A stretch of 62,981 bases of DNA, counting the filler, from Rhizaria sp. SCN 62-66 (lineage: Eukaryota): assembly GCA_001724265.1 (NCBI GenBank). It is 2 parts of 2 records of this genome, joined end to end, with 100 filler letters (N's around TTAATTAATTAA, not from the genome) between each part and the next. Parts side by side here need not be neighbours in the genome. Positions count along the whole stretch, not along the records: positions 1 to 31,442 come from MEDY01000357.1; 1 more part is not named here. One strand, given 5' to 3'. Shown piece after piece: positions 1 through 51,900 of the stretch. The notes under the pieces were generated by a model. It worked only from the letters and a program-made list of their open reading frames with translations, searched no databases and had not been told where the DNA came from. Numbering within the stretch: the first letter of the stretch is position 1; every line of letters begins with the position of its first letter. The translations under genes were made by a program, and so were the position numbers.

Positions 1-944
1 ATTAAAATGTTGTGCACGAACTCAAACACAATTTTACGACATACCTATCAAGATTTCGTCAATAACAGCAAACGGCCCAATTCGCGACCCCCGTGTGACT
101 AGGGGCTGGGTGGCTCTGCTTAGAAATTTAAGCGTTTCTTTATTTGCCTCGACGATTCTGCTACTGATTTCCGCAATACTTCGTAAAAAAATGCGCGCAC
201 CAGATCACATGTATTTGATAGTCCTTGGATTCACGAGTTTGCCATAATTTGTTAGTGTATTGGTTGCATATTTCATTACATTATTTACGAATGTGAGTGT
301 CAGTCAAAAAGTTCCGAAAAAATATTCATTTCGCCTTGGGTCAGAGACCAAGTGGTTGCGCACTTCTACTGATTAAGCAAGCCCAACAAATGCATTGCGC
401 CAAAAAAACAACACAAATCCTGCCATTTAAGTCTCTTAACACGTCCTTCAAGGTCCAGCTGCAGATTGATATGATGATTTCAGCTCCGCGGATTCGTTCT
501 TGCATGCCAACAGATCTTCAGGTTTGCAGTGCATACATTCTACGTCGTATTCACATGCAGATTTGAAGAAGATAGATGTACTATGTACTATCTAAGATGC
601 TCACGTGTTATTGTGCAAGAACGTTATGCAGACGTGTCCAAGGCGCTTTTTGACCGAAGTAAGTGAAGAAGAATGCGCGCAGAGAGCGCATGCTTGAGTA
701 TCATTATGGAAACTGCTTAAGCCAGCGCATGAAATTTCGAGCCTAATGTCGTGTTTGCGTGTCGTATGTATAGTCGTAGCCAAGACAATTTCGTATGCCA
801 TTTGTGTTGAAATAGAAATTCCCTTTGTCAAAAGACGACACAGTAAAAACAACACATATTATTAATCCTTTAGCTGCGTTACTGCTCGCACGAAATCCAT
901 TTACTAGTACCGAGTGGTGCAACTGTTGGGTACGCGTAATAATC

Positions 945-3900
945 TTAGAGATTGTGATAATGACTGCTTGTACTGCTGCTGCGGGTCATGCTGGTGCTGT
1001 ATCCAGTGCCACCGTACTTCTCGTCACTGTCGCGACTGGCGCTTGCAGTTACTGACTTATCGAGCGCCCGTGGCAGCGCAAGCTGCGACGCACTGTGATT
1101 GGCATTCGAGTGACTGATGTCACCGCTGACAGCTTGGGAGCGAACGTCGTCGACGCTGGCGCCACCGGCTCCAACACCACTACTGCTGCTGGCGCTTGTT
1201 GTCAGTGACAGCAGGCCGTGGCCGTTGTTGTTGTTGTTATGATTGCTGTCTCCCGTGCTGGCGCTTGTACCTGTGCTTGCGCTCACATGCGAGTTGGGGA
1301 AGTTGTTGCTTGCAAGCCGAGAGCGCTTAATTTGAGGTCCACGGCCAACAGAAGTGTCAAGGTCAGACTCTTCAGTGACAGCCTTGTTGTTGCCAGTGAT
1401 GACGTTGTCTTTTGCATCAACATCTTCGTCATCTTTCTCGTCATCGCTTTCATAGCCGCTATCACTCTCGCTCACACTGGCGCTGCCGTTGTCACTGTCA
1501 CTACTCCTGCTCTTGCTCCGACTCTTGTTCCGTGTCTTTCCCGAGCCCGAGGCAGAACTAATGCCGCTACCTACAATTGTTGCAGTACTAGTGTTGTTGT
1601 TGCGACCAGAGTTCGGCGCAAAAGCATGCTCTGGCGTGGTTGCGTTTGTTGCCGCAGGAGTCAATGCGTTGCTATCGTGATGCAGATTTGCAGCGGCAGC
1701 CTTAGCAGCAGCGGCTTGGCGATGCTGTTGCTGCTGCTTTTGGCGCGCAAGGATAAGTGCTTGTGAATGCTGCTGCGCCTGGGCCTGTTGCTGCAGCTGC
1801 ATTTGCAGCTGATGTTGATGCTGTTGTTGTTGTTGCTGCTGTTGCTGTTGCTGCAGCACTATCTGCTGCTGCCTTGCACTGACGCGCGTTCCTGCCGCCC
1901 CGCTTGCAGGCCCCCTCGCGCTGTCGCCCGCGGTGGCACTAAGGTACTCAGCCGCAGAGATCACGCTGCCAGCATTTTTTGCGAACCCGCCGGCGCTGAC
2001 GCCGGACAGTACTCGCTCAATCTCTAAGACGCGCCCCGCCAGAGCAATATTGTGCGTCCGCTATTGCTGGAACAAACGCTCCCACTCTCGCGCCGCAGCC
2101 AGATGCTGTTGTGCTTGCACGCGGGCCTGCTCAGTTAGTCGTGTTTGGTCGCTCACGCGGCGGCGCCACGCGGCGTCGAGCTGGCGCTGCGAGGATTCGA
2201 GCTTGCGCGCAAGCTCGTGCCACAGCATCATCACTGTGGCCTCGGCGCTAGTCGCAACAGTGGCCAGTAGCGCTGGATTTGCGGCTGTCGTAGCGCCAGC
2301 AGTGTTCGCAAGTGTGCTTGGACTCCCGGTGCGGTCAGTGTTTTTGCCGTTGTTGTAGTGGTTCGGGTAGATGGTTGTGTAAGTAGCGGTGTAAGGGCCT
2401 GTAGGCGCAACGCTTGCGTTGGTTTGGTTAGGACTTGTACCAAGGCCAGTGCTCACGCTCGGATTGACACTAGCGTTAGCGCCACTCCGACTGCCGCCCA
2501 TAACATCGGTGCAGTTCAAACCAGCGCTGTCAGTTGCGCTAACTTTTCGACGTGGTGGTGTGCTTAACAAAGCACTGCTGCTCACAATGTTACCCTGACC
2601 GCTTGCACCTGAGCTGGCGGCAATCCGAGATGCCGACTGCAAGGCACTGCTTGTTGCCATCCGGTGTTTCCTGTCACTTTCACTATCACTGCTTTGCGGA
2701 GCCGTGCTGGGGGCTGCAGTGCTCTTAACCGTCGGCGAAAGCGCATGCGCAGTCAGACCGCTGTACTTTGTGAGAAGTTTCTGCAACGCCGGCGACATTG
2801 GTGGCGACCCGGTTCCATCTCGACCTGCAGCGGGGTCTGCGTCCGTCATCTCAGCTTTGCCCTCGCCAGTGTTGCTGTACGGCGTGTAGCTAAGTGCGAA
2901 GATACGGTGACCGCTAAGTGTGGGTGTGTCCAGACTAAAATTATCCAGACTTCTGCCATTGCGGCCTGGCTGCTGTTGTTGTGGTTGTTGCTGAAGCTGT
3001 TGTAGGGCGCTCAGGTCTAGTCCCGCAGCGGCAGCCAAGTACGGTGAGTGAGAAGCAGAGGCAGTGGCTTGACTTAGGTTCGAGGAGCCCGGTGTGGCGC
3101 CCTGGGTCTGAGACTGAGGCTGTGAAGGCGACTTTGACTGATGCGATGAGCCAGTTGCAGCTTGCATTTGCTGCTGCTGTGGTGACTGCTGCTGCTGCTG
3201 CGGCTGTTGCGGCTGTAGCGCAACTGTGACTGCTGAGGGCCACACAGAGGAGGCAGGCGATGGCCACCCGCCTTTCTTGCCGGTACCAGCGCCAGCAGCA
3301 TCTGTGCCACTTACAGCTGCGCTCGCGGCCGGCATAAACCCGCGGCGGCCGCGCTTCTTGCGGCGACCGCCCCGTGGCCTCCCAACAGTTGCGGCGACCG
3401 ATGGCACAAGAGTCCGCTGCTGCTGCATTTGCTGAGACTGCCCAGAATTCTCTGTGTCGACATTTTCGTTCACGTTTTCATTATCACTGCCGCTCGTGTT
3501 GCCCTCTTCCTCGCCATCGTCGTCGCCAACGCTCACTTCAATTCCGGCTGAAGGCGCGCCAGTGCCAGTGCTTGCGCCAGGACCCGGGACGACAGCCGTC
3601 GTGACCGTGGGCAGAATCGCGGTCGCTAGGCTGTCGTTGTCAACATCGACTACGCCGCCAGCGCCGTTGTGGCAGTCGCACCGCAGCTCAGCGCCCTGCG
3701 CCTTGCGGCCGGCGACGCAAGAGAGCTCCGTCGGTGTAAAGTAGTACACGTCGAGCAGTCGCGGGCAGAGTCCCATGCGCGAGAGGAAGCTTCCTCCGTC
3801 CTGGCAGATAAAGATCTGACTCACGTGCTCGCGGCGGCACGCGACAATGGCGTACTCTACGCCGCGCGAGTCGTACAGCGGCAGCTGACGCAGCCGCGTG

Positions 3901-5770
3901 ACTGGGTGGTAGTGGTCTGACCACTGGCCGTCGGTGTCGACGAGCGGCACGGTGCCAGGCGCGAGGCCGGGCACTGGGTCCGTACCAGTGGGGGCGAGAC
4001 GGCCGGTGGTCTTGATGATTTTGCGGTCAAGCGTGTGCAACACGTCGCGGTCCGCGGTGATCTTGGTAGCAAACTCAAGGATGCAGAGGATTTGGTGGAA
4101 CACTGTAGGAATAGACGGCAACAGCTTTGTGTGCTTTGGCAGCAAAGATAAAATACGCTCTTTTTCTGCATCGCTCTTTATCGGCTTTGATGCTGCAGCT
4201 GTGGAAGTCTCAGTCTTAGCGCTGGCACCAGACTTCGTGCTCTTGGCTGTGCTAAGCAGTTCGGGCAAAAAGTGCTCCCAGTGAAACACTGCGTAATACC
4301 CCTTCGATGGTACGGAATCAAAGTCTAAGGGCGTGATGTCGCTGAAGTCGTACCCAGCGGCCAACAGCGCCGAGCCCCCCGCGCCCGCTCCAGCTGCGCC
4401 ATAACTACTCAGACTGCCCCCGAGCCCGTGCAAACCACTGCTGCTTTCGCCGCCGGCAGCAGCAGCGGCGGCGGCGCCAGCAAGAAGCTTCATGAACTCG
4501 TTCTCTCCTCCGGCAGCACTCAAGTCTGCAGCACTGCGGCCACCAAGGTACGCGTTGTACGAGGTACCTAAGCCGCTGCCTGTGCCGGCACCACCGCCAG
4601 CAACAGTTCCAGCAGTAGCGCCTGTCGATTGCAGTAACATCTGCTGCTGCGGAGTTAGAAATACGCCTCCTCCGGACCCGTTGGGAAACCCTGACGCTGT
4701 GGTGAGCGGACCGGCCAACGGCCCGGTCACGCCGCTATGATAGTTCTCACGCGTTGCGTACCGGTGCTGCGGCGCGGGCGGCTTAGCTTTCGCCGCCTCC
4801 TCGGCCGCACTGGCGCTCGAGCCGTAGGGAAACGCATGAGACCGCGACGCGGACCTGTGGTGCTGCATGTGGCTGTGCGCAGACAGGTGGCCATGGGCAG
4901 CGGCGGCGCTGGTAACTGCCGTCGGCGTCGGCGGCGGCGCGGTGAGCATTGCGGCGACTGCGGCGCCCACGCTCGTGTGGCCTTTGCTCAGCGCGCTTTT
5001 GCCGACGCCGGTCACGCCTCCAGTCACGCCAGCACCAGCGCCAGAGCCTGCGCCAACAGCAGAGCTAGGCGCAGTCACGGCAGGCGGTTTCTTCTGACTG
5101 CTGCTGGCCTTGGTTGGTTTTGTCACGGGTGGGTACAACACCGCAGGACTGAGACTGCTGGACTTTGCACGCGCACCAGCGGCAGCCGCAGAGCCAGCGC
5201 TGGCGCCAGAACTACCAACAGCTGGCGCTGCCGCTGCTCCAGGCTGCTTTGCTGCTGTTACGCTGTTACTTAGAAAAGCCGTGTAAGGGTTTACCCCTGT
5301 GTAAGTGGCAGGGTGAGTCGCCGATCGTCCAGTGTAAGAACCCGCAGTTGTTGCAGGGTGAATGCTCCCGGTGGTTGCTCCTGGAGCACCTGCGTGTGTA
5401 GTTGCGCCTTGAGTGTAAGTACCGCCGGGACCAGGGTGAGTACCTCCATGGCCGGTGTAAGTGCCTGGGTGGTAAGTGCCGGGCATTGAGGCTGAGATTG
5501 GAACATTCGTTATATGCTGTAGGAGAGCAGGCGGCAGCACTGTCCCTGGTGCAGATGTCAGCGCTCCTGTGCCTACTGCTTGCGCCGTGCCCGTGGCTCC
5601 AGACTGCGAGTATGCGGCGTACGAGGGATCAGTTTGCGCACTTCCAGTGTGTGATTGTGTGTATGCGCCTTGCTGAGCGTGTTGTTGTTGCAGCTGCTGA
5701 TAATAAGCATGCAGCATTGCTGCGGTATACGCAGGCTGCTGTTGCTGTTGTTGCTGGTGTTGCTGTTGCG

Positions 5771-5803
<33 letters not shown>

Positions 5804-6596
5804 GTTGCTGCTGTTGTTGCTGTTGTTGTTGCTGTTGCATCTGCTGTTGTAACTGCTGCTGCTGCTGCTGATGATGCAGCTGCTGCTGATGATGCAGCTG
5901 CTGCTGATAATAGTAGTTATACTCCGCGCTAGCATTTGCGTGCGCTGTATCGGCCCCAGTGCTGGCAGCCGCTGTCGCAGGAGCAGAGGCGCCAGTGTGG
6001 GTTCCTGTCGCAGCGCCGCCGCCACTTCCACTGTACGCTGCTGACGACGAGGCGGCGGCTGGCAGGCCCAACGCAGGCATAGCCGCTGCCGGCTGGCCGT
6101 GGGCGCCACCGCTGGAGTGACCGTGTCCGGCGGAGTGACTGTGGACGGCGTTCGCGCCATAATGACCATGAGCACCGCCGCCGTGCGCCGCGCCGTGGCC
6201 GCCGAGCGCACTCGTGGCCGTGAGCGCGGGCGTCGTGAGCGCAGAGGGCGGGGCCGACGGGGCTGCGGAGGCTGGCGCCGAGGGCACTTGCCCGCTAGTC
6301 CCGATTCCAGTCGCAGTTTCCCCTGTCGCTAAAGAGTGCGGGTGGGGCAGGGGCAGCGGCAGAGGCCAGTGCAGAGGCTGCGGCAGACTCTGCGTTGCAC
6401 TCATGCTCGCGCTGTGGGGGTTCGGGTTTGCGTTTACGTTGCTGAGGCTTGTAGTGACGGCTTCAGGACTTGTGTTGCTGCTGGTTGCAGCGCTAGACGG
6501 AGGAGGCAGGGTTTTGGCGTTGCTGCCAGCACCAGAGCCTGCCGCGTTCGTCGGACTCGTGCTCGCGACGTTAGCGACGTTGTTACTTTGTGACAT
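945..6596 (-). CDS. Gln/Ala/Ser-rich low-complexity protein (~1883 aa) with a central globular region and a leucine-zipper-like coiled coil; in-frame TAG at 2061-2063
   Basis: ORFs 2061..6596 and 945..1964 are in the same frame (offset 1116 nt) and are separated only by a TAG; the sequence between them is open (RTHNIALAGRVLEIERVLSG...). ATG at 6596, TAA at 945-947. PolyQ tracts, basic NLS-like RRKKRGRR and an ordered segment ~3670-4310. A regulatory role is inference only. Confidence 0.8.
1765..1870 (-). repeat. CAG/CAA polyglutamine tract
   Basis: Runs of (tgc/tgt) on the + strand encode QQQQQQQQQQHQHQLQMQLQQQ, downstream of the in-frame TAG. Confidence 0.85.
5735..5905 (-). repeat. CAG/CAA polyglutamine tract (~55 codons)
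   Basis: (tgt/tgc)n on the + strand; QQQLHHQQQLHHQQQQQQ... in the protein. Confidence 0.9.
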
Positions 6597-7713
6597 GTGA
6601 TATCAACACAAAGCCACACGGCAAGGTAGTGAAAAGACACGTTTTAACGATATCTTGTTTTAGCTAAGGGCTACGCAAAGGAGAAAAAAGGCAAAGAGGG
6701 ACGAGGAAAGAGGGACTGCGTTGTGAGATTCAGCTAGTGTGATATGGGAGGCAAACGCCGTAATAGAACCATGTCATCAACTCAATAGCAGCAAGACAGA
6801 GTTGCGCGTAGCCAGGCCACTTAAAGAGTTGATAGTAACGCTATGATATGACAGTCGAGAGCTGGAAACCGCAAAGGTGCTCGAGGGCGGAGTGCAGTTG
6901 CAAGCAAGGATTTCACAGCGACTGTTCTCACTCAAACATCGCACCTGATACACTTTCACTGATTGTTCGGATAAGATATCGTGCCAAAGCATTGTTTCAA
7001 AAAGATATGCTCCTAGAGCAGTTCGATCTTTGCAGCGATCAAGTCCGTTGCAAGTTGTTCCAGTGGGACAGAGACTGGCAGGTGACAACGACTTGAGGCA
7101 ACAAAGGGAACTCTCATCCCTCTTTCCATCCACGGTAATTTTAGTCACAGATCTCAAGTGTTATCCGACAAAACACTATTAATAAATTACATTGGTTAGA
7201 GTTCTATATGCCACACAAGTTCTTTAACTGCAACATTGAGTCTTCAAGTCACACACAATGGTTTCATTTCGGAGTGAGCAATTCTACCACAAACGCACTC
7301 GCTCCGACAGCTGCAGTCTCGTCGACGAGAGGGGCTCTGGAGTGATATCTAAGACCACCAGCAGAGGACCACAGTCGCCGTCAAATACAATACCCGCAGC
7401 TTATTTATGAGGAAACGTGTCGTTATAGTCACTTTTTAATTGAAGTTTCACTTGCTCCTTCAATAATGCTTTGACGCGCGATTTCTCGCAGCATCTCACC
7501 ACCCGACATCTCGTCATGCCCCCTCCCTCATTCTGCCACCCAGCACCCCACTAGGACCTTATTTGCTCTGCCTGTTACCTTCTCCGGCTACCAACAACGC
7601 GCCGCCCCTTTAGCGCTAAGTGTAGCGCGTGTACGAGCGACTGTTCGACCCCTGTGAACCCAGAGCTAGCAGCTCACAACGCGTGCCACGCGTTTTAACT
7701 CGACTCCGTTATC

Positions 7714-10687: not shown

Positions 10688-12228
10688 ATGTCTACCATCC
10701 GCGAGCCTTCTACCACGGGTCTCACCTCTGAGCAGCTTACCGCTCTGCGCGCATCGATCCAGGCGCTGCCCAAGGTCGAGCTGCACCGCCACCTCGAGGG
10801 CTCTCTGCGTCTCAGCACGCTCAAGTTCTACTACTGCACGCAGACGCTCGGCGTCGACCCCGCCGTCGTCACCGAGGTCTTCGCCGCGCGTGGCACGCTC
10901 GGCCAGCGCGGCACGGCCGTGTTTCTGTCCCCCGCGACCGCGCCGACCGCGGTCGACGGCGTCACCACGGTGCTGGGCGCCGCCCCCGCCTCCGAGGCTG
11001 TGGCCGAGGCCAATAAGGCTCAGCGCGGCGTGCCCGAGGAAGCCGAGCTCACGCGCACGGTCATCGACCGCTGCTGCTGCTACACGCCCGAGCCGGACCT
11101 GGTGTCGTTCCTGGCCAAGTTCGGGAACATCCAGAACGTGTTCCAGACCCCCACAATCCTGGAGCAGCTCGCTTTCGAGGTCGTCGAGGACTGCGCACTC
11201 GTCAACACCAAGATCCTCGAGCTCCGCTACTCGCCCAGCTACGTTGCCGGCGGCCACGGGCTCTCGTTTGAGGCCATTCACGCCGCGTTTCTTGCCGGCG
11301 TGAAGCGCGCGCAGGAGAAGTATGAGATCGCCGTCGGTCTCGTCGGCATCATGGAGCGCCAGATGAGCATCGAGGAAGTTACAAAGGTACGTGCATCTTC
11401 TGTATCTTGTAAACACATGATAGGATTGATAAGTCAAACGTGTTACGCTTTGTTCAGTCCAGTATTGCTAGGATTACATGGCTTTTTTGTGCTCAAATAT
11501 CAGTTTTCTAATCCTATTTTTATTTAGGTTTGTGACTTTGTTATCGCCAACAAGGACACCTTTGTTGGCATTGACCTTGCTAACGACGAGCTCAACAACA
11601 ACGCCGACCGCTTCCAGGGCGTGTTTCAGAAGGCCTACGACGCCGGCATCAAGATCACCGTGCACTCCGGTGAGGTACGTTTCTCTTGCATAACAAACGA
11701 TGTTACTGCATCAACGAGCACGATTGAATTATTTATATGTTTTTTCTCTAGGTTGCATGCACAATTGTGTTATGCTCATTGTGTTTATATCCAATCAATA
11801 CTTGTGACTAATGATACATTTCGTAGGTCCCTGTTGACGAGGCGCCGCAGTGGGTTTGGGAGTCGATCACGAACCTTCACGCGCTGCGCATCGGCCACGG
11901 CTTCCAGATTATCCGCAACCCCGCCACGATGGCCAAGGCCGCGGCCGCTGGCACGGTGTTCGAGGTCTGCCCCAGCAGCAACTACCTGTGCCAGGGCGTG
12001 GACACGGTAGCCAGCCACCCGCTGCGCAAGCTCGTCGAGGGCGGGCTCACGTGCACCATTAACACCGATGACCCGGGCATGTTCGGTGTCGACATGAACA
12101 ACGAGATCGAGATCGCGGTCACTGTGCTGGGGCTGACGATGGAGCAGGTCCAGCAGATGCTGCTCAACGCGCGCAAGGGCAGCTTCGTCAGCGAGGAGGA
12201 GAAGGCCAAGTACTGGCCCTTGAAGTAA
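10688..12228 (+). CDS. ADA: Adenosine deaminase family enzyme, 415 aa; exons 10688-11386, 11528-11674, 11827-12228
   Basis: Motifs LPKVELHRHLEGS, ELRYSP, VGIDLA, TVHSGE, RIGHG, EVCPSSN, INTDDP. Two GTACGT...AG introns join the exons in frame; ends TAA. Confidence 0.93.
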
Positions 12229-12942: not shown

Positions 12943-15900
12943 ATGTCATCTGGACTGCGCCGCCGCGCCCGCGGTGCCGATTCCAAAGCGATACTTGCAG
13001 CGCCCACTTCGAATCCTCCCCTTGTCGACCACAGTGACAGCGACAACGACGACAACGACAACAACAATATTGACAACGAGAGTGCCCATGACACAAAGCA
13101 GCGGCAATCTACACCTGCGCTCGTTTTGACAAACACTAACTCTGCGTTTTGCTCCGACCCCTCCCCGCCGCATCTGCCCGCGCTGACCTTCGCCCTCCTG
13201 GCGCTGCCTCCGCGGCTGAACGCGCTGCGCAGCCTCGCGCCCAGCGGCTTCGTCTCGGCGCAACTGCGGCGGCGCGTGTGGCCGCTGCTGCTTGGCGTCA
13301 CCGCCGCCGACCTTGACAGCTCCTTTCCCTGCCCGCGCCACGCTTCCTCGCCCCCCAGCTCTCGCGCTGGCGCTGGTGTCGGCGCTGGGAGTGACGCCGG
13401 CGCAGTGGTTGGCGGCGTGAACGTGTCGCACCGCGACTACGACCAGATCAACAAGGATGTGGCGCGCTCGTTCACCCGCATGCGCCACTGCATGGCCCAG
13501 AGCAATGCCGAGCGCGGCGCCGTTGCGCGCGAGCTGTGGGCCGTGTTTGCGGTCGTCGCGGCGACCGTGCTGAGCAGTCCCCAGGCGCTGGAGCAGCTCG
13601 GCGCAACGGTGGCAACAAAAGCTCAGATTGAAGTTAAGGCGACAAAGACGGCTGTTCAGGCCGAGACCGAGGCGAATCCTGACACCGGCGCTGCGGAGTC
13701 TGACGCGGAGGTTAACAGCCCTTCTAACACTGCGACTGCGGCTGCGGCCGACATCAGCCGGTTTAGCCACCACGCTGCTGTTGCCACCGCTGCTCTTGCT
13801 ATGGATCTGCGCAAGGTGCTTGCTGCTTGGCTGAACACCGCGACTTCGCCCGCTGCACTTACGCGTGCCGAGACAGAGGAGCTACTGCAGCCAAACAGCG
13901 CGTCATCCGCGGCTAACAACGCAGACAACAGCAACGGTTTCGCATCACTGTTACCATGCTATCCGCTGGTGCCGCAGTCGTTCCCTCTGCTGCCGTGGTC
14001 GCAGCTGCGCCTTTGGCGCGACTACAGCATGATCGATCCTGGTACGTGGGCTCTCAAGCGACGTGAAAATTTGCTTTATTTGCATGATTTCGCAGAGTAA
14101 CATGATTTTTTTCACTTTGGTTTGCGTTTCTGTTATGTCGTCTTGCTTGTGTAGGACTTGACACTTTTTCACAGTTGGTCGCGACGGCAGCCGCGGATGT
14201 TGTGACTGCGATCGTGACGAGCGATAGTGAGGGGACGGGCAGCGACTCAATGAAGCAATATCCGTGTACTGTTGAGGCGGCCTGCGAGAAGCTTATCCTC
14301 CTTGCAAACCCTGGTAAGCAGTCAAAATCGAGTTCTTGCCCTGCGTCTGCCATCGCAACATCTCTGCTGTCACACATGTTGTTATCTACTCCTAAAAAAC
14401 GGTCTAATAGTACTACCAAGATTAACGCTGACAAGAGTATGAACCCCAGCTCCAACGCGGATGACGTTTTCGGCTCCATCAATGTCGCTGTGAGTGTCAC
14501 GTACCCTGCTTTTGCTGCCGTTACGGGCCACATTATTTCCCCGTCCTTGTTCCATCGGCGCCAGTCGCTCGCGCGCGTTCTGCATTCGATCTTCTCGGAA
14601 CTGCCGTATTTGAACTATGTGCAGGGGTTCCACGACGTTTGCTCTGTGCTCGTGCTGGTGTGCGAAAACAGCATTAGCAGCACGGACCCTAACCTGACCA
14701 CTTGCAGCCCTGTAACCACAAAGCGCCCCTACTCTGCGCGCACCCTTCAGTCGCTCCAGTCGCCCCCTGTGTGCGACGAGCCCCTCGCCTTCGCCCTCGG
14801 CCGCGCACTCGCTCAGGTACGTTACGTCGACATTCACGGTTGAAACTTGCGCTTCAAACGATATGCCAGTTGTTAATAAGGATTTATTTGCGTCTTGTGT
14901 TTCCTTCTTTGTAGGTTTACCTTCAGGACGCGTTGCAGCCCTCGCTGGACCGGGTGATGGCGACGATGGGCCTTATCGACCCACTTCTCACCCGCGCCGA
15001 CCCCGAGCTCGCCTCGTTCCTGCACTCTGCGCACATGCCGTCCTTCTTCACGCTCAGCTGGCTGCTGACGTGGTTCTCGCACAACATCTCGAAGCTGGAG
15101 GACGTGTGCCGCGTGTTCGACTTCCTGCTCTCGTCGCACCCGCTCATGTCGGTGTACCTGGCAGCGGCGACGATCGTGTACTTCCGCGGGCAGGTGCTGA
15201 CGCTGCCGAACGAGATGCCCTCGGTGCACGCGTTTTTCCAGAACATCGGCGACGACGACGACGACGACGACGATGCTGATGATGAGAACAACTGCAGCAG
15301 CGAGGGCGACTGCGACCAAGATGACTGCGACAACGAGCAAGGCGCTGACTGTGATGCCCACCGCCGCAGCGCTCGAACTCCCAGCACGACCAAACGCCAC
15401 AGCCAGCGCGCCATCGACATCGACTCAGTGATCTCGATTACGCTCGCGCTATGGGAAGGGGCGCCCCCGTACCTCATCGCCTCGACTGCGCCGACGCCGC
15501 TGACCACGTACACCGACTACGTGGGCACGCCGCGCACGCCGCACGCCGACAGCAAGACGGGCGGCGGCGCACCCTCCCAGCCGCTTTCGCTGAGCGCGCC
15601 TGCTGATGCTGGCTCACTGGTCGACAGCGTGGCCACGCCGTTGCACAAGGTGTCTCCGCCGCTGCTGCTGACCGACCCGAGCTAGCCCGCGCTTGCGACA
15701 TGGCTTTCGCGCGTCACCAACGCTAGCGCCACCGTAAACAGCAACGCTACTCCGTCTCAGGCAGTGAACCCTTCGCTCTCTCAGTCTCCGTTGCCGCACT
15801 CTCTGTTGCACTGGCGGCACCCTGTGCGCGACGGCTACAACGCGCGCCTTGCCACTGAGCTCTGGGGTCGCACCGCCGCGATCTCTGCACTCGCGAACGC

Positions 15901-18757: not shown

Positions 18758-21700
18758 TTACAGTTCAATCCCCATCGAACGCCTGCGCTGCCGCACCTTG
18801 TCGTCGTAGCTGTCAATGAATGCCATCACCGCCTCCTTGCCCTTCTGCTGCCAGAGTGTGTCCCAGGCAACCATCCAGCCGTGCACCAGCACCGCTGGGC
18901 CGCCGAGCCCGACGCCGGTGCCGGGGATGTACTGGCCAGTGGAACCAGACTGCGCGGAGCGAGAGTTCGGGCTGAGACTGGAGCTCGCGTCGTCGTTGCT
19001 ACTGGCACTGTTGTTCTTGGACTCGGGCGCAATAAAGACGGACTTGGTGAGATAAGGGTTCGCAAGCAGCACGTCGGACAACCGCACGAACGGTTGACCT
19101 AGCGCCAGCCACCCGTCTTCGGTCATCAGGAGCTGTCCCGCAGTCCTACTTCTGCTGACGGCGTTGTTGTCGCTCGTGCCCAGGTAGCTACCGTAGCCAC
19201 CGCCAACAGGACCAGCGGAGCTTGTGACAGCTGTAGTTGCACGCGGCAAGGGCGACTCAAAGCCAGCCCCCGGAGTTGCTTGCTCCACGGTTGTCGTCGC
19301 CTTGCCGGTGGCCGGGTCGACGCCGCCCGTATCGTCCGTCGTCACGTCGTCCATGATCCACAGAAGCTTGTTGATGACGCGCCACGGCAGCACCCACGGG
19401 TAGTTGGGGTCAATGTCGCCGCTCTCGTCAATGTTAAACGTGAGGCCACCATCGCCGTCAACCTCCGCACCAGCATTCCAGCGAGGGTACTTGGACCCGT
19501 CGTAGTATATGCCGCCGTCAGAGTCGACGCGGTAATTCGCGCCGTCAGCACCGTTGCCAGTGCCGTCGCCATCTCCGTCGCCGTTGCCCTTGTTTTTATC
19601 ATTGTCATTCGCGGCCAGCAGCGCACGGCGCCGTGCGGCCTCCGCCGCGGCCGCCGCGGCCGCCGCGAGCGCCCCCGCGGCGCGGCGCTGCTCGGCCGAG
19701 AGCAGCGTGCGGTGGCGCGCGCCGTGCAGGCCGTAGCGCGGGTGCGGCGTGAGGCCCCAGACATAGCCGGGGAAGGGCGTGCGCGACCGGAAACGATGCT
19801 CGAGCAGGTCGGCCAGAGACGGGCCGGCCGCGGCGTGGGAGGTGAGCAGTGGACCAGCGGCAGCGGTGACGGGAGTGGTAAGGGCGCGGTTGGTGCGGGT
19901 CGATGGGAGGGCAGAGAAGTTGGCGGGGTGGCTGCTATTGCCAGTGCTGTTGCTGGTCGAGTTGCTAAGCATAGTGCGACGAGAGAGCGGCAAGCCAGGA
20001 ACTGTCACAGGGCTTGCACTTGCAAAAGGTGCATTGCTGTTACTCGTGACACTGGACTCACCAGAAGCAACGTTAGCATCATTAGTGTTGATGATGTTGC
20101 TGCTAAAGGGCACAATGCGCGCATTGCTGTCAACCAGCGGAGGACGAATGAGATGGCTACGGCGGCCGCTGATAGGGCGGCTTAACATCGGAACACCTTG
20201 GCGGCCAAGCTTAGATACAACACCCGGATCGGACGTAGAAGCGACATTTGCAGTCTCCAGGGCTTCAGCATTCTCACTGCTGCTGGTATTCATAGGGCCA
20301 CCGTCAGTCCCCTGTTCGCCGCTTACACCGCCTTCGTCGCTATTCATCGCTTGCTTCTCAGTGATAATATCACGAACACCGTCGACTTCTGCGATGGTGG
20401 CCTTGACGTCAGACTTGTTCACATCGACAGTCTTGTTGTCACATTCTTCATTGTCACTATCAGAATACAAATGCTGCTGTTCTTGCTGCTGCGTCTGCGA
20501 CTCCGCAGTTTCCGTCGCTTGGGACTGCGCCTGAGACTGCGGGTCAGTCTGCGTCTGTGCCTGCGGCTGGGGTTGCACACGGCACCACCAGAACGAGGTC
20601 GGGAACCGCGTGTTGAGCTGGAACTGCGGCGGGGGCCACAGCTGCGGCATCGCCTCGCTCACGACCTCACGGATCAGAGTCTGCACCTGCTCGTTGTTTC
20701 CACTTTGAGCGGTCTTGCCGGAACCCTTGCCCATACCCTTGCCTCCACCAAAGCTGTTGTCGCCGTAAGCGCAGTCTGTCTGCTCATCCGTCTGGTGATA
20801 ACTAGCGCGGCTGCTGCCACGCGCAGAGGGAGGGCGCGGGGCTGCGACCGCGACACCTACGCTACTGCTGCTGCTGCAAGAGGCAACAGCGCCAGCTACT
20901 GACCGGGCAGTCAAGGGCGGCTGCTGCTCACGGACACCCTGAGACTGGATGTGGCCGTGGGCAGCCGAGCCAGGACGGCTGTTGCTGCCATACGCAGCGG
21001 AGCCGGGACGACTGTGGTTGCGCGCTGCGGCAGACCCAGGGCGGACGCGGGCGGATGTGGGGCGCGAATAGTGTCCGCCGAAACCAGCGCCTGAGCCGCC
21101 GCTGTCGGCGTTGGCGTTGTTTGCGACGGAGGCAAATGCAGAGGCGACACCACGCGCGCTGACTCCGCCGTCGTTGTCATAGGCGGCCATGGCCCCATCT
21201 TCTTCCTCGTCGTCTTCGTTGTATATACCTTCATCGCGATTCGAGTTGCTGGACTGGAGATGTGATTGCAAGCGGGATGGAGCTTGCTGGCTATGGCCCT
21301 GGCCGCCAGCGCTACTGTTGGTCTGACGCCGGCCGCGGCGACCGTCGCCGGCGCCGCCGCCACCGCGCGTGCTCAAGTGCGGTGCAAATGTCGGCGTGGT
21401 AGACAAGCGCGCGTGCTCTAGCAGCAGCCGCAACAGCGGGTGTAGCTTCTCTTGCTCTTGCTCAGGCCGTAAAGCTCCAGCAGCGTTCGACCCTGGCCGA
21501 CTGTAACTACGGCTGCTCGTCGGACGAGCGCTCCCGGGACGAGCACTAAGGGGCCTTGCACTTAGTCTGCGGCGAGCGCTCACCGGGCGGCCGTTACTGT
21601 CGTGCATGTGGGCGTTGGGGCTGACTGCAATGCCATCAACGTAATCGACGTACGTCCCGTCAATAATGCCGTTGTTGTCATGGGCGGCGTTAGTGCCAGA

Positions 21701-24700
21701 ATCATTGTCGCCGTCATTACGGTTATGATTCGTCTCGTCGTTGACATCCATGTCTGTGGTGATGTCAGCACCAGCGCCACCACTGACGCCCCCGCCCGCC
21801 TCCTTAATATGAGGCGAGGGGTCGACGCGAACCAACTGCGCCGGCAAACAGCTTCCACTTCCAGGAGCGGCTTCAATCGCACTGGTGTTACTAAAGTCGA
21901 TGACATTCTGTGTGTCAATGCTGTCAGAAGGAAGCGTGGCAGGAAGATCGGCCAGAGGCAGATTACGCAAAAGTGCAGCGCGGAACGCAACAGCGGATGG
22001 GGGGCGGCTAGACTTCACAAAACGACCGTTGCCGCAATTAATATTCTCTGGGTTACCTGTCACCATGTTAGCGTTCTCTAAAGCGCCAGGATTCACCGTA
22101 GCGCCGTGAGCAAACGTCATGTTGCCAGCAGTGTTAGGAGCGGCGTTGTTTGCAGTGTTATTGTTCGCTGTGTGCACTGCAGAGCGCGGACGCAAGGTCG
22201 AGTGCATAAACGAATCAAATGCTGTCTCGCCTTCATCAGCTTGCTCATCAGCATCAGAGCCGGAAACATCGTCAGCGGCCTCATCGCCATCGGCGTCACC
22301 ACTGACTGCAACACATGCGTTGTTGCTGTCGCGGATACCGTCATCGTCAGAAACAACACCATCGGCAGCCGCACGGCTACTGCTCCTCCTACCCTTAGCG
22401 TCCCTTCTAATCACAATGATTCCAGAGGCACTCTTTCTGTTCGTGAGAAGACCCGTATCGTCACTGTCGACAGCGCTTGTGGGAGTGCGCGCAGCGGCGG
22501 TCGAGACAGGCAGGCAGGGCAGACCGGGGAATGAGATATCTGGAGACAGCACCGCCAGCGCGGCAGCGACAGGGCCATGATTGACGGGACTCGTCGTCGC
22601 GTTGCTTGCGCTGGCGCTCGTAGCTGATGCTGTGTTGTTACTCGGAGCGTTCACACTCGCAATAGGGGTCGTATTCGCAACACTCTGAGGATGATGGTAA
22701 GTCGGCTCAGCAAGCGCACTGTTGCTTAAAGCAGTGCCCGCATGCTCAGTTGCAATAATCACACGTTCTTGCTCCTGCTCCTGTTGCGGTATCTCATTCG
22801 TGTTGCCAGTGCTGCCCGACGAGCGAGACCAAAACCGCTGCGGCTGCCGCCAATCGCAACTTCTGCTCGCGCTACCTGCGACGATGCTACCTGTGTCGGT
22901 GTTCTTGATGGTGGGCTGGAGCGGTTGACGCTTCCACTGAAGCTTGTGCTGATGCTTAGCGACGAGCTCGCAGTCACAACCATCCGCGCATCCACATTCC
23001 GAGCAAGGGCTGCCGTTGGCGCCAGCAGCGCGGCGCGCATTCGGCGTCGCGTTGGTGTCGCTGTCACTGTCGTCGCCGGCCGCAAGCCGCGCTGCCTTGC
23101 GGAGCAGAGCGTCTGGCACTGTGACGCGCGCTGCGCCTTCCCAGCGCCATTTGGTCACGTTGCCGCCCGCACTAACATTCACGACAGGGGTACTTACGTT
23201 TCCGACGTTCGCCATGTTAACGTTCTTTTTAAAGGACGCATTCGTGTTGTTGTTCGCAACTGTGATCACCGCGGGCACGCCGGCATTAATGCTGTCTGAG
23301 ACCGTGTTGGCGCCAAGCCCCTTTGTGTTGCGCTGCAGGGCGCTCAACGTGTCGCCAAGCCTCTCACTGAGTGTGCCGCCACTAGTAGTATTGCTATATC
23401 CGGCTGCGTGCTGCGGTTGCTGCAGCAACATGACGGTAACTTGCGCTGAGAGTCCATTGCTCGTGTGGACTTGAGAAGTGACAGCACATCGACTAGAGGA
23501 AACATCAGTGCTTGGGTAGACACGAGCGGTTGAGCGGCGAATCCGAACAGTGGCCCCACCAGCACCAGCAGCTTCACTGTCAGCACTAAGAGTTGCCCGA
23601 GAATGTTCACCAGCCTTCGGAATGGCCGTGTTGCTGGCAGCGTTAGTTGGTGATGTTTGCACAGATATGCTGCCGTCAACATCATCATCGTTTTGAACTT
23701 CGACATCGAGATCGTTTGTGCTGGGCATATTGTCATTCGCGTTGTTCAGAGTGCCAGCAAGATTCATATCAGCCAACATCTGTAGTTGTTGGTGCTGCAC
23801 CTTGCTGACATTGTTGGACGCTGCATCGGTGAAGCCAACCCTTGCAGCTGCAGTCGCAGGCCGCACCCTCGTCTTAGCGCCCACAATCACACTCGCCCCA
23901 GTGTTCGTGCTGGAAACGGCAACCTCATTGTTAGCAGCTGCAGCTGAGCTGGGAACAAGAGCGGTGGTCGAGCTGGCATTCGTACTATTGTCGGTGTTGC
24001 GATCACTGTTGGTGGGCGTTGTCAGCGAGGCGTGCTTCGACAGATAGCGCCTCACCCTCGCCAGCGCGCCCTTGCTGCCGATGATGCCAGCACCAGAACT
24101 GGCTGCCACAGAGACCGGCGCCGTTGAGCCCATTCCAGCTATCGCCGCAGTCGTGGGCGGCTCGGGCCGGAGCTTGGCGCCGTTGAACCAGTTCTGCTGC
24201 TGCCGCTGTTGCTGCTGCCACTGCAGCTCGCGCGCGACGCTGCCGCCGCCGGCCGCGGTGCCGGGCCTCCTGGCCGAGTGGCCGCGCGACGGCGGCTGCG
24301 GCTGGGAGTTGAAGTAGTGGCCCGCCTCAGCCTCGAAGCAACCGTTCGCCTTGGCGCCAGAGACTGCGTGGCCACTTCCACGGCGGCGGTCGGTTAGGCC
24401 TGCAATAAAAGCCTTGAGCTGCGAGCGCCGCTGCTCCTGCCGCTCAGCCTCACTTGGCTGCCTCTGCCGCGGCGGCCCCTGCGTCCGACTTTGTTGCTGT
24501 TGCTCAGCGAGCTCTTGGGGCGCGCGCTGATCTCGCAGCACATTCTCTGGCAACGCCTGTGGCTTAGACGCTTGATCAGCTTCAGCATCAGCTTCAACCT
24601 CAGCAATCGGCTCGGTCATGCTGAGCACGTAAACCGGCGCGGTGATGTACCACTGCAGCCCCACCTTAGCGCCCGCAGCGGCCGCCGCGCTCGCGGGGCC

Positions 24701-27700: not shown

Positions 27701-29343
27701 ATCACCGTTCTTGTTGGCGGCGCTGTCAAGCGACTGGTTGCGGCTGGCCAGCTCGGCCGCCGCAGCGCCTTGGAGCTTGATCTTGCTGATGTTCACACTG
27801 GGGTTCTTGTCCAGCGCCGTGGCGGCCGCTTTGAGCCATGCCAGCACGTCGGACGACTCGTCGGCAGGGTCGAACGCGGCCGTGCGCGCCGTGTTCGCGC
27901 GGGTGGCCGACAACGCGCCACCCTTTGATCCGATGGTATTGGGGTCAAATGCGGCGCTGTCATGGCCAAAGGCGGAGTCAGCACAGGAGCTTGTGTCAGC
28001 GGTGGTGATGTTCTTGTTCGATAGTGAGGCAAGGAAGCTGTCCGCGTCAAAGCGCGCCAGCGGGGGAGGCACTGGGCCAAATACAAACGCATCAGACGCC
28101 AGCGCACCGGAGCTCTGCTGTTGCTGCAGCTGTTCGCGCTCAGAAGCAGACGCCTGCTCTGGCTCTTGCTCCTGCTCCTGACTCTGCAGAGAGTAGTCGT
28201 GAGCGGGCCCGTGTGAGCCGCGGAGGGAGAGCCAGCCCCTGCGGACGCGGCCGCTGTGGGCGCCGATAAAGCCAGGCACACCCGCAGCAGCTTCCGTCTC
28301 CGCAGGGGACTGATGTGCGGCCTGAATAGTGTTGTTTTGCGGAGTGAAAGACGAAGAAAGTGCCGCGAACAAGCGGCGATTTCGCGCCACCTCATTTTCG
28401 TTGCTGTTCGCTCTACTGCTGTTCACAAGGGCATTGTTGTTGGATCCCGCTGCCTTCGGCGCGGTGTTAGCAACCTCAATGGCTACGAGCGCGTTAGCAT
28501 CAGCGGGATTGGAGCCTTCGCAAACGGCATGGCGTGCGTGCGGCAGAAGCGTCCCGAAGCGACTGTTCTTCACGCTAACGACATCGCAGGCAGCGTTGCG
28601 TTCAGTCTCACGATCACGCAAACGTCGCTAATAATTGCTGAGAGCGTTACAATTACCGTTACTATTGTCGCTGTTGTTTTGAGTGGGTTTCTCGACGCGG
28701 TCATCGAGCGCCGTGACGAGCGAAGGGTGAGAGCGCGCTGCGGCGGCCAGCGCCGCCGCCACGTCGGGATCCGACCGCGGCCGCAGCGCGGGGGCCGCGG
28801 CGGCGTCGCCGCTGCTGGGTGTGGCCGGGCCGGGGGGTTGCGTGGGAGCAGTGACGCTGATGACCAGTGTGGTTGGCTCTGAGCGAAGATCAAACAAACA
28901 AGGCAGGATACAGAGCGACATGTGTGTGTGTGTGTGGGGGGGGGGGTAAGATGAAGTCAAGAGATGCAAGTTCAACAATATCATCAAGAATCACACTCGC
29001 GTGGCTACAAAAGAGGTATGAAAGAGCATGTCGCAAAGTCTCATCACGTACCAGGGAGCTGAGGTAGATCGTCCGGGAAGGAGTCCTGCTGCTGCAAGCC
29101 TTGGGACTGCTCGCGCTGCGAAGGGGACGGCGCACTCGCCTGCAGATGCGCGGACGGCGCGGTGGCACCGGCATCATGCTGGTAACGCTGACTCCGCGCC
29201 AGAGCTGATGATACTGGGGCAGGAGCAGGAGCAACGGCAACGGCAGCAGTTGTTACAGGTGCTGAGACTGAAGCTGAGACAGAGACAGAGGCGGGGGCCG
29301 GGCGGCGGGGCGCGGCCGAGCCTGGCCTTGCGGCTGCGCTCAT
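18758..29343 (-). CDS. Very large low-complexity protein (~3470 aa) with many RPxSA motifs; exons 29343-29052 and 28878-18758; in-frame TAG at 28628-28630
   Basis: ATG at 29343 (MSAAARPGSAAP...). Intron 29051-28879 (GTACGT...CAG) splices G|AG into the frame of ORF 28628..28987, which is the frame of the 3287-aa ORF. Ends TAA at 18758-18760. No family recognised. Confidence 0.78.
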
Positions 29344-29914
29344 AATGCAAGCTGGCAATACAAGCGCGCGCTGAACAATAGATTATACGTGAAGAGCTCA
29401 AAGCTGTGTTGTGCTCGATGACAGAGAAAACTGAGGGCTTAGAGCAGACTCCCTGTCAAGTGTGTGTGAAAGAAAAAGGGGGTTAGTACAGCAGGTGAGT
29501 CATAAATACAAAGTTCATATGTGCAAATAATAGAAGCCAAATGTATACCTTGGGTTATACTGTCTAAATTCGCATTGACGGAATATTGATAGAGATATCG
29601 AATGTGAAAGTTAGCTCGTCGAGGCACAGCTCATAACGGCTCTCCTCTGCCAGCCACAAGGGCGTTCAAAGTAGCTTCACTCTGAACAAATTTATCTTGA
29701 CAGCCCTTCGTCATAATCAAATTTGGTGGAACTTCCCATATTTCTGCTGTGCGCTTGAATAACATCTTTTATTAATATCATTCATCGCGCTCACTGTAAT
29801 TCTCTGCGTCCTCCTTCTTCAAAGACCACCCAACCAGTCTCCCACTACCTCGCCCATCTACTCTCACCCAGCCGGTCCCGCTTCTCAGCTTCACTTTACA
29901 TCGCTGCCACCACG

Positions 29915-31342: not shown

Positions 31343-31641
31343 TAATAACCCCTATGTAGCGTCAACTAAAAAACGCGAATTCGCGCTTTTTTTGCGACTT
31401 TGGCGCACTTTCGTAGAAGTTATCAAACTACGTGGTTTATTTNNNNNNNNNNNNNNNNNNNNNNNNNNNNNNNNNNNNNNNNNNNNTTAATTAATTAANN
31501 NNNNNNNNNNNNNNNNNNNNNNNNNNNNNNNNNNNNNNNNNNAGCTTTGACGATTATTTCACAGAGATTTCTATTGTGGAAGTTACCTGCCGAAAACTGC
31601 GTTTTTGGCGTTTTTTAGTTGACGCTACATAGGGGTTATTA
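31343..31641. mobile_element. Putative DNA transposon/MITE ends: 34-bp perfect inverted repeats around a scaffold gap
   Basis: 31343-31376 taataacccctatgtagcgtcaactaaaaaacgc is the exact reverse complement of 31608-31641. The outermost TA on each side could be a TA target-site duplication. The interior is lost in Ns. Confidence 0.65.
31443..31542. other. Assembly gap with artificial TTAATTAATTAA linker
   Basis: 100-nt block of Ns with a central TTAATTAATTAA, which places stops in all six frames. Confidence 0.95.
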
Positions 31642-48900: not shown

Positions 48901-51900
48901 TGGCGACTCTGGATGTCGTGACCGCCATGCGCTTCACGTCGGGACTCACCGTCATTGTTGCGCCCGCCGCGCCGCAGCCGTGGCTGAGTATGGCAACCGT
49001 GTTCCGCGTGGTTAACTTTGCCTACGCGCGGTCCATTCGCTTCGACCGGTCGGAGCTGCACATGCCGGTCGGCACAGAACCGCTTTCGCGGGCCGCAACG
49101 ACCGCAGAGGACTTCCCCCAAGACAAGTTCTCCACGGCGTGGGTGGCGCTCACCAATGGCGCACACGCCAGCGCGGCCCGTGCCGACTTGGCGCGCACCG
49201 GCTACGGCGGCGAGTACGGCAACGACGGTGGCAACGGCGGTAACGGTGACAAGTGCAGTCTGCAGGCGGCCCGTAACGCACAGGTCCGCGCGCTGCGCCG
49301 CGCGCGCGCACTGTTTAGGAGCGCACACTGCGACGGCACTCCAGGTGATGACGTCATTGCTGAGAACGAGATCGACCGAACGGGACTCCCGGACACTGCC
49401 GACTTGGCGGCGAGCCCCGAGATGGCAACCGCTGACGCGATCAGCGCCGCACAGAGCCACCTTAAGACCAGCTTCGACGCGCAGATTAGGAACATGTGCA
49501 GTGCCGCTGCGGAGGAGGATGCCGCGAGCGCGCGCATTCGGCCCGACGCGCGCGCGCCGCAGCGCTGCACTGCAAGCGCCAACACCGACACCGCGGCCTC
49601 CGCAGGCGCGGATGATGCAGACGTGTGCCATTGCAGCGCGTGTTATGCGCAGTGGGTCAACGCTCCTGCCTCCAGCGCTTCACACCCGTCGCGCGCTGTT
49701 GCAGTCGGCGACGATGAAGATGGCGCAACTAAGAGCGCGGCCACTGGCGCTGAGAAGTCTGCCGACACGGAGACGGAGGTGTGGACACTGCCAGCCACGC
49801 CGAGCGTGCTTGCGCTGCGCCACGCGCTCTCGCCACAGCACATATTCCGCCGCTACAAGCCCGGTCGCTCCAGGGCGGCGCGGCGCAAGAGCTACTCGCT
49901 GCATACCGTGCTATCGTGGGATGCCGCCGCCGACGCCGCGACGGTGTGGGGCCACGAGACCGAGAACGCGCGTAAGCTCCTCACGACGGCCGCGCCCGCC
50001 GTGCGCGACATGTGCATGATGGGCAACGTCATGCTCGCGTGGACCGCCGTCTCGGCGCTCACAGCGCTATACAGCGAGACGCTTGCGCTCGCGTCACTCG
50101 CACTCTCTGCCGTCGGTGAGCGTGGTGTCACAGCCGCGGTTTCAGACCCCTTTGCGCTGCAGGCGCACGGCTATGCGGCCGGTCTGCTGCCGCAACTGCG
50201 CGCGGCGCTGGTGGCCGTGCTAGAGCGCGCACGGCAGCTCGCCGCGCTGCCGGTGGCCGCGGACGCTGACCCTGTGCAGCTGCTTGCGCCGGGGTACTTC
50301 GACGCGCTCATCACCACGGCGATTCCGACTGACTTCTTCTAGGGACTCGTCCCGGTGCCGCGGACCGTCTCGTACAGAGCCACGTGGTTCCAGACCCGCA
50401 GTGTCTTCGCTGAGCCCTTCGCACCGTCTGTCTGGCACCGCAACGAGGTCCAGCTCTGGCCCACCGCCGCCGCTGGTGAAGGTGTCACACAGCAGCAGCA
50501 GCAGCAGCAGCAGCAACAGCCTGATGCTGAGGGCACGCCGAACCCGGCCGCCGCTGACTCTGTAGCCGCCGGCGTGGCTGCGTGGCGTAGTCTGCTACTG
50601 CTGGGGCCCTGCTCCGCCGACGCCGCATTGCTGTCTTACCGCGACTCGGTGCTCGACTGGACGGGTTCCTGGCGAGGCGACACCGCCCTGGCCGCTTCTA
50701 GCGTCGGTGCCGCACCGGGGTTTCTGTCTGACTGGTTCGCCACGTCCTCACGCCGCCGCACCGCGCCCGCGCCCTTTTCCGCCGACGCGCGCGCTCCAGT
50801 GCGCCACTGGCTCCGCGCGACCACTGACTCCGCCTCGTCCACCGGTGTGCCGGCCCCGCTGGCGGCCACTGTGGACTCGCTGCGGGACGGGCTTGCGGTC
50901 CTTGTTGGCGCGGACACGGCGCCCTGGCTCGCGCAGCACTTCCCCAACAAGGATACGAGCCTTGAGCTGCCGCTACACGGCCGCAGGAAGGCCGTCGCGC
51001 GCGCGCCCTCGCTCGCCGCGCCCGCCGCTGTGTCTACGCTTGTGGGCTATACCGCGCTATTGACCTTGCGCGAGGGCCTCTCTTCCGCCGTCTCGGCGCT
51101 GGCTACGGCGCAATTCAGCCGCGCCGGCTCCGGTGAGGACGAGGACGAGCTCCCTGTGGAGCCGCAGCGCAGCACGATTGCTGCGAGCGCTGTCGCCGCC
51201 ATCGGCGCCCTCACGCGCTCTCTCCGCGACGACGACAACGATCTCGCCGTTTGTGCGAACACAGCTGCTGCGGTCAACACTAGCGCGCTCACTCTGGACC
51301 AGCTCGCGCGCGCGCTGCCGCCGCGCCTGCTGCAGCCCGGTGTATTGCAGACGCTTGCGCACAACATCGCGCACATGTCCGCCGTGGTGGCCCAACGCCT
51401 GCCCGGGCGGCCGTCCACCGCGACCGTGGCCACTGCAGCCGCGCCGTGCACAGGCGTCGTTTGCAGCGCGCCCGCGTTCCTGGCCTGGGTTGGCGAGGTC
51501 GCCGCCGACGGGCTGTCTGGCACTGCTGACGACAGCGCGCGCGCCACGGCCTTCGCAGTCGCGCACTGCGCCGTCATCGAGGGTCCAGAGGGCGTGGCTC
51601 CGCTGCCGCGTCTGGCCGCTTCGACAACAACAACAGCAACAACAACACCAGCGACAGCAACAGTAGAACAGCGCTCGTCGGAGCTCTCCGACTGCGAGGC
51701 TGCGCGCGCTGCGCTCGAGACCCTGTTGGCGAGCGGTGCGGACGCTGTCGACGGCTGGACCTCGCGCCTCGCCAAGATCTCTGGTGATCTTCCCGTCTCT
51801 GCCGCCGCGCTGCGCCCGCGAATGGCCAGCGTTGCCGCACTGTTTGCCAAGACCCCTCTGGGCGCGCTAGCGGCGCTGCTGGCCCACTGGCGGCGCCGCG

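Follow-up and report, generated by a model that had tools for sequence, protein, structure and literature searches.

The window, that is, the whole stretch of 62,981 nt analysed here, is eukaryotic scaffold sequence with coding DNA of about 60% GC and AT-rich introns that start with GTACG, and its genes encode an OST-alpha transporter, an adenosine deaminase, a TBC RabGAP, CD36, an aldehyde dehydrogenase, and WD40 and ARM proteins. The sequencing runs in which the stretch is contained are, where labelled, bioreactor or wastewater metagenomes; since the organism recurs in such samples, it may be culturable. Further DNA of the organism was not found in the viral or prokaryote collections. A relative of the CD36 protein (31996-33759, minus strand), P0005 with 54% identity, is present in another metagenome and would belong to a sister organism. 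Very large low-complexity proteins are encoded in long single exons, at 18758-29345 on the minus strand (about 3,400 codons) and at 46137-59120 on the plus strand (about 4,300 codons). There is also a small multi-intron gene at 29914-31091 on the plus strand, which may resemble IFT20; if so, a flagellated cell would be implied.

On the minus strand, two open reading frames in the same frame, one of 1513 codons (2061-6602) and the other of 371 codons (945-2060), are joined by a TAG codon at 2063-2061. The gene and its features are as follows:

945..6596, minus strand: full CDS with the TAG read through, 1883 aa, mostly low-complexity, ending at the TAA of 947-945, no intron detected
3636..4352, minus strand: Cys/His-rich folded domain that defines the family (homologue search; model pLDDT 78.8; no Pfam match)
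2007..2225, minus strand: conserved C-terminal coiled coil, W-E-x-x-aromatic-x-x-E-x-x-x-N-x-x-L-x-x-R (homologue alignment)
2061..2063, minus strand: in-frame TAG at the Glu column of the family and at a heptad d position (homologue alignment; identical letters in run X4)
2016..2033, minus strand: R-h-x-x-h-E motif (RVLEIE) in the g-a..d-e register (sequence; present in the orthologue P0007 too)

The protein is composed of the Cys/His-rich domain, long Q/S/A-rich tracts, a basic stretch and the coiled coil, and across the family the domain is usually paired with a C-terminal coiled coil. The domain itself is undescribed. The ESM Atlas search with it gave no usable match, and Foldseek with its model gave none at E <= 0.001; the best VIA-align result was the SLED domain (Z 5.3, rmsd 3.6, 104 residues aligned), which is below the trust level of the tool. 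A nuclear regulatory role may be proposed for the protein. The named members of the family are from Lotharella and Amorphochlora, and since these are chlorarachniophytes (Rhizaria), the family membership points to a rhizarian-like organism. Its lineage seems to inflate proteins, with 1883 aa here and 1315 aa in P0007.

The open frame downstream of the TAG is not due to chance, since a stop-free frame was obtained in none of 5000 shuffles (on average 13.5 stops per shuffle); the two other minus-strand frames contain 10 and 26 stops over the same part. Nor is the TAG an assembly error, because a contig of run X4, which belongs to a different study, spans 1864-2137 with 0 differences (depth 4.2, one contig). 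However, X4 and the window differ at only 3 positions in 4.9 kb, one of them synonymous, so that both come from the same lineage and the shared TAG is no proof of its age. No credible splice joint was seen in the gene in four runs, among which only X4 reaches TAG 2063. X9, a poly(A) run, covers the gene elsewhere, whereas X4, whose library type is unrecorded, covers the TAG; none of the runs X7, X8 and X9 reaches this site, and the low word shares of these three come from incomplete coverage and not from divergent strains. A small intron excising the TAG was considered and rejected, the gene being collinear with P0007 without an indel and the flanks having 60-65% GC. Standard gene callers truncate the TAG-bearing proteins of this organism, and the protein records P0006 and P0038 each end at a TAG.

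In the preliminary description of the locus, the TAG was assigned to Leu on the basis of a leucine-zipper register, and the stretch was held to be the best evidence in the window for Leu over Gln or Trp. In order to identify the residue, 1.84 billion representative sequences were searched with HMMER, which gave 23 matches, 22 of them non-self, and 17 of these 22 were aligned, the five left out being those in which the coiled coil is absent or lost. The orthologue P0007 (1315 aa, E 1e-85) aligns without a gap across the TAG and has Glu opposite it; it is collinear on both sides and shares 8 of the 18 residues that follow the TAG. The column is occupied by Glu in 14 of the 17 homologues, with one gap, one Thr and one Arg, the last two being gene calls that lose similarity there, while neither Leu nor Gln occurs in any of the 17. 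Among the 14 intact rows, this Glu column is the sole invariant column of the coiled-coil stretch. When the TAG was scored against a profile built from homologues only, Glu ranked first (53.4 bits), followed at a distance by Gln (46.1, fourth), Trp (45.0) and Leu (43.9, 19th of 20); the lead of Glu over the next residue is 6.2 bits with the 14 rows and 2.7 bits when the three dropped rows are restored. The alignment with orthologues that had been proposed as the check on Leu thus returned a polar Glu, and the assignment to Leu is refuted. Glu is strongly favoured for TAG 2063, and the comparison supports a reading in which the codon would be read through and the protein made at full length.

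Similarity in the gene calls P0017, P0019, P0026 and P0028 is lost no more than 1-2 codons from the Glu column, a pattern suggesting that relatives have a conserved intron there; the window gene has none. Near the far C-terminus, IKRxR and EKYG/GKYG motifs (window 945-1400, minus strand) recur at the end of P0007; this hints, though weakly, at homology of the entire read-through tail.

The structural part of the preliminary description fared better than its residue. The read-through peptide on the minus strand is indeed W-E-R-L-F-Q-Q-TAG-R-T-H-N-I-A-L-A-G-R-V-L-E-I-E-R-V-L, preceded by R-E; its positions 1, 5, 8, 12, 15, 19, 22 and 26 are W, F, *, N, L, V, I and L, and the TAG stands at a heptad d position inside a coiled coil whose register is kept in the homologues. 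Counted from the TAG in 14 homologues, W is found at -7 in 9, W/Y/F at -3 in 12, N at +4 (an a position) in 11 and L at +7 in 13. The quoted pattern LxxxNxxLxxxVxxLE holds for the heptad and the Asn, but the last d position is Ile and not Leu. Moreover, the d positions of the family are W, E, L and I/V, without Leu at successive d positions. The d position of TAG 2063 would correspond to a conserved polar layer of the coiled coil, and the case shows that a heptad position by itself is insufficient to name a residue.

GCN4-type zippers place Asn at an a position of the heptad, ahead of L, V and I. This family resembles them in the Asn followed by L, V and I, but it has Glu at the d position before the Asn, then R-h-x-x-h-E, and no bZIP or other Pfam match. 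The designation as a classic dimeric zipper stands as to the heptad and the Asn at the a position, while the dimer is doubtful: in the g-a..d-e register the R-h-x-x-h-E motif favours trimers, according to the available text of PMC3653964, and a trimer appears as plausible as a dimer for this sequence.

The TAG at 2063 is not the only one in the exons of the window, and one of the TAGs that belong to introns is listed with the others:

15683..15685, plus strand: second mid-exon TAG, RabGAP-TBC gene, with a predicted C-terminal membrane anchor after the TAG
28628..28630, minus strand: third mid-exon TAG, near the start of exon 2 in a gene about 3,400 codons long
50340..50342, plus strand: fourth mid-exon TAG, in a 4,300-codon WD40-containing gene with equal codon bias on both sides
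11525..11527, plus strand: 3′ splice-site TAG of an adenosine deaminase intron (GTACG donor, AT-rich intron)

Homologues of the TBC protein carry a hydrophobic C-terminal segment, and in the window gene this segment lies downstream of TAG 15683; five TBC proteins were found for its column, and these could be aligned over the TBC domain only. For TAG 50340, the codon-bias score is 0.234 on one side and 0.237 on the other, with GC3 of 0.78 and 0.80, and the homologue search with this stretch returned only the protein of the window itself. The TAGs at 11525 (+), 14912 (+), 34862 (+) and 44988 (-) were rejected as codons, since they are splice acceptors of AT-rich introns with GTACG donors.

Additional loci of the same kind were reached through a transposon at the junction of the two parts of the window:

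31345..31640, strand not assigned: one transposon terminal inverted repeat on each side of the N gap, the handle for the sibling contigs L001-L010

These 97-bp terminal repeats belong to a multi-copy DDE (DDE_1) transposon, which L003 and L004 contain as complete copies encoding a transposase about 690 aa long. With the end repeat, ten metagenome contigs were obtained. Two of them match the window at 100% identity, a further six have the repeat in common with it and belong to the same assembly, and the last two are from other assemblies. The exons of L001, L007 and L008, in which no in-exon TAG was seen, the short ORF of L003, and L002 and L006, which duplicate the window, were left out of all counts. 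The short L003 ORF (3894-4397, plus strand) lies beside the transposon, is signal-peptide-like and contains one more in-frame TAG, which is uncounted. In L004, the TAG of the transposase aligns without a gap to a GAG (Glu) codon of a 49%-identical paralogue. The L009 gene (608-2140, plus strand) encodes a coiled-coil repeat and a P-loop NTPase and has five in-exon TAGs in 511 codons, two of which stand one codon apart; in its 11 seven-codon repeat units, the same position is GAG in 9, AAG in one and TAG in one. L009 is the richest of the loci in which the code could be tested. It has 38 bases at its start in common with window 1-38, which suggests a second repeated element. As for L010, a distant paralogue of the window ARM protein, two weak alignments (24 bits, E 0.005-0.007) place Cys and Leu opposite its TAGs; they are too weak for a residue assignment, though they were counted against the Glu reading. 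The reliably anchored TAGs, namely 2063 and those in L004 and L009, are all opposite Glu (3/3).

In-frame stop codons were then counted in the exons. The window has 4 TAG in 16,184 codons, and four sibling loci together have 10 TAG in 2,630 codons; in the roughly 18,800 exon codons of both, neither TAA nor TGA occurs in frame. The 15 gene ends, defined after reading through TAG, consist of 8 TAA, 7 TGA and 0 TAG, and the probability of 0/15 is 0.002-0.09, depending on the rate assumed. For 14/14 stops being TAG together with 3/3 arising from Glu, point-mutation nulls give P = 2e-6 to 3e-5, and P = 0.006 under the most favourable null, which allows coding-strand G-to-T changes only. The share of TAG among Glu codons is 4/670 (0.6%) in the GC-rich host genes of the window and 10/149 in the mobile or lower-GC genes of the sibling loci. 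TAG is followed by C in 5 cases, G in 4, A in 3 and T in 2, so read-through does not require one particular context.

Several explanations other than a full Glu code must be weighed against these data. Leu, the earlier reading and the meaning of UAG in the rhizarian exLh, is favoured by the heptad d position and by the coincidence of a rhizarian-like organism with a Leu code in Rhizaria, and one L010 TAG is opposite Leu at the very end of its 24-bit alignment; nevertheless, with its absence from all 17 homologues, its low profile rank and GAG opposite both other anchored TAGs, it is now highly improbable. It is equally hard to credit that UAG encodes Gln or another residue, or that splicing of a small intron or editing eliminates the TAG. 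Gln is the commonest meaning of UAG in eukaryotes as surveyed in the available part of PMC11687900, and the codons adjoining TAG 2063 are Gln codons, but Gln does not occur in the column. The four splice-acceptor TAGs lend some plausibility to an intron, against which stand the collinear P0007 and GC-rich flanks so different from the AT-rich GTACG introns. A-to-I editing of TAG would give Trp, and this outcome does not fit the Glu column.

Under the standard code, the TAGs would be nonsense alleles, fixed or heterozygous, in a clonal lineage with a G-to-T bias. Each of the three anchored TAGs is one G-to-T change from GAG, the near-identity of X4 leaves the age of the TAG unproven by sharing, and the sibling loci adjoin transposon ends, all of which would suit such alleles. 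However, 4 of the 12 window genes would then be truncated, yet beyond the window TAGs the frames run on without a stop for 371 to 3,289 codons and show normal codon bias; the commoner mutational routes (from CAG, CAA, CGA and TGG) have yielded no TAA or TGA, and even the null restricted to coding-strand G-to-T is disfavoured; and conservation to P0007 persists beyond the TAG. This explanation is improbable. Dual or leaky decoding, in which UAG is read as Glu partly or by context and is otherwise a stop, would be an early, ambiguous stage of reassignment with GAG-to-TAG changes tolerated though mildly harmful. It fits the same Glu columns and would agree with TAG being scarce in host genes and commoner in mobile ones, but none of the 15 gene ends is TAG, and with five TAGs in the 511 codons of L009, weak decoding would yield little complete protein. 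Avoidance of the new codon is also known in fully reassigned codes, as described in the available parts of PMC5304391 and PMC12153298, and leaky decoding is on the whole unlikely, although less remote than the nonsense alleles. The preferred reading is a nuclear code in which UAG is fully reassigned to Glu while UAA and UGA are kept as stops, to which we give a probability of roughly two in three; if full and leaky decoding are taken together, UAG read as Glu with UAA and UGA as stops becomes very probable. The limit on the Glu reading is that 3 TAGs are reliably anchored, and that for two of these the gene is mobile or rich in repeats and adjoins transposon ends that may be decaying. The great rarity of TAG also counts against it.

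As for the mechanism, UAG would be decoded by a tRNA-Glu with the anticodon CUA, which is one base from tRNA-Glu(CUC) and would be unable to read UAA. It has been argued, in the accessible text of PMC5304391, that CUA is the sole anticodon that reads UAG while ignoring UAA, and precedents for tRNA-Glu(CUA) are reported for Oligohymenophorea sp. PL0344 (PMC10553269) and Blastocrithidia (PMC12153298), each in the part of the source available. No tRNA gene is present in the 62,981-nt window. It is inferred that eRF1 has lost most of its recognition of UAG, that TAG codons originate from GAG through G-to-T drift, and that GC pressure together with weaker decoding keeps them rare. At 2063, the protein would be full length, with Glu at the conserved polar d position of the coiled coil. 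The code may even be near its birth, UAG having been emptied as a stop and captured by tRNA-Glu(CUA), with UAA terminating and TAG spreading from GAG, a proposal for which the balance is even.

To our knowledge, UAA and UAG nearly always change meaning jointly, and few nuclear codes split them. Such a code would show how eRF1 distinguishes UAG from UAA, and a new codon that makes up less than 1% of the codons of its amino acid in a GC-rich genome would allow a direct test between the codon-capture and ambiguous-intermediate models. Codes so sparse pass for scattered pseudogenes. In the literature searched (few subscription journals, no supplements, so that a listing may exist elsewhere), neither UAG = Glu with UAA as a stop nor any rhizarian Glu code was found, and a UAG-only Glu code appears new among nuclear codes in that literature.

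Among the known codes, that of PL0344 has UAG = Glu, UAA = Lys and UGA as the sole stop, with a tRNA-Sup(CUA) derived from tRNA-Glu, as far as the available part of PMC10553269 describes it. It shares UAG = Glu with the present case, but it belongs to a ciliate in which UAA is Lys, whereas the present organism is rhizarian-like and has UAA at gene ends but never in frame. In peritrich ciliates and Blastocrithidia, UAR = Glu (available portions of PMC11687900 and PMC12153298); UAG thus has the same meaning, but UAA is also Glu there. Blastocrithidia has a tRNA-Glu(CUA) and avoids the reassigned codons, 1.4-1.7% of all codons, in abundant proteins, and a model of AT pressure is given for it (PMC12153298, same portion). 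In contrast, coding DNA of the present organism has a GC content of about 60%, and the codon, at about 0.025% in the window, is rarer by a factor of about 50. If true, the present code would be the missing one-codon intermediate toward the UAR = Glu and the UAG = Glu/UAA = Lys codes.

Codes in which UAG alone has changed are also known. For phyllopharyngean ciliates, Protocruzia tuzeti and Scotinosphaera, the residues given in the available part of PMC11687900 are Leu, Gln or Ser, with no Glu among them; UAA is kept as a stop in these cases as it is here, and the difference lies in the residue. In exLh (Sainouroidea, Rhizaria), UAG = Leu, with 384 UAG in 71 transcripts, and in Iotanema spirale, UAG = Gln, UAA and UGA being stops in both (PMC5304391, text available). 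The likeness is that UAG alone is reassigned while UAA and UGA still terminate, and exLh is also rhizarian; the differences are that the residue is Leu or Gln there and Glu here, and that UAG is abundant in exLh and very rare here. If true, this would be a second and different UAG reassignment within Rhizaria, a code that would work like those of exLh and Iotanema while being a member of neither.
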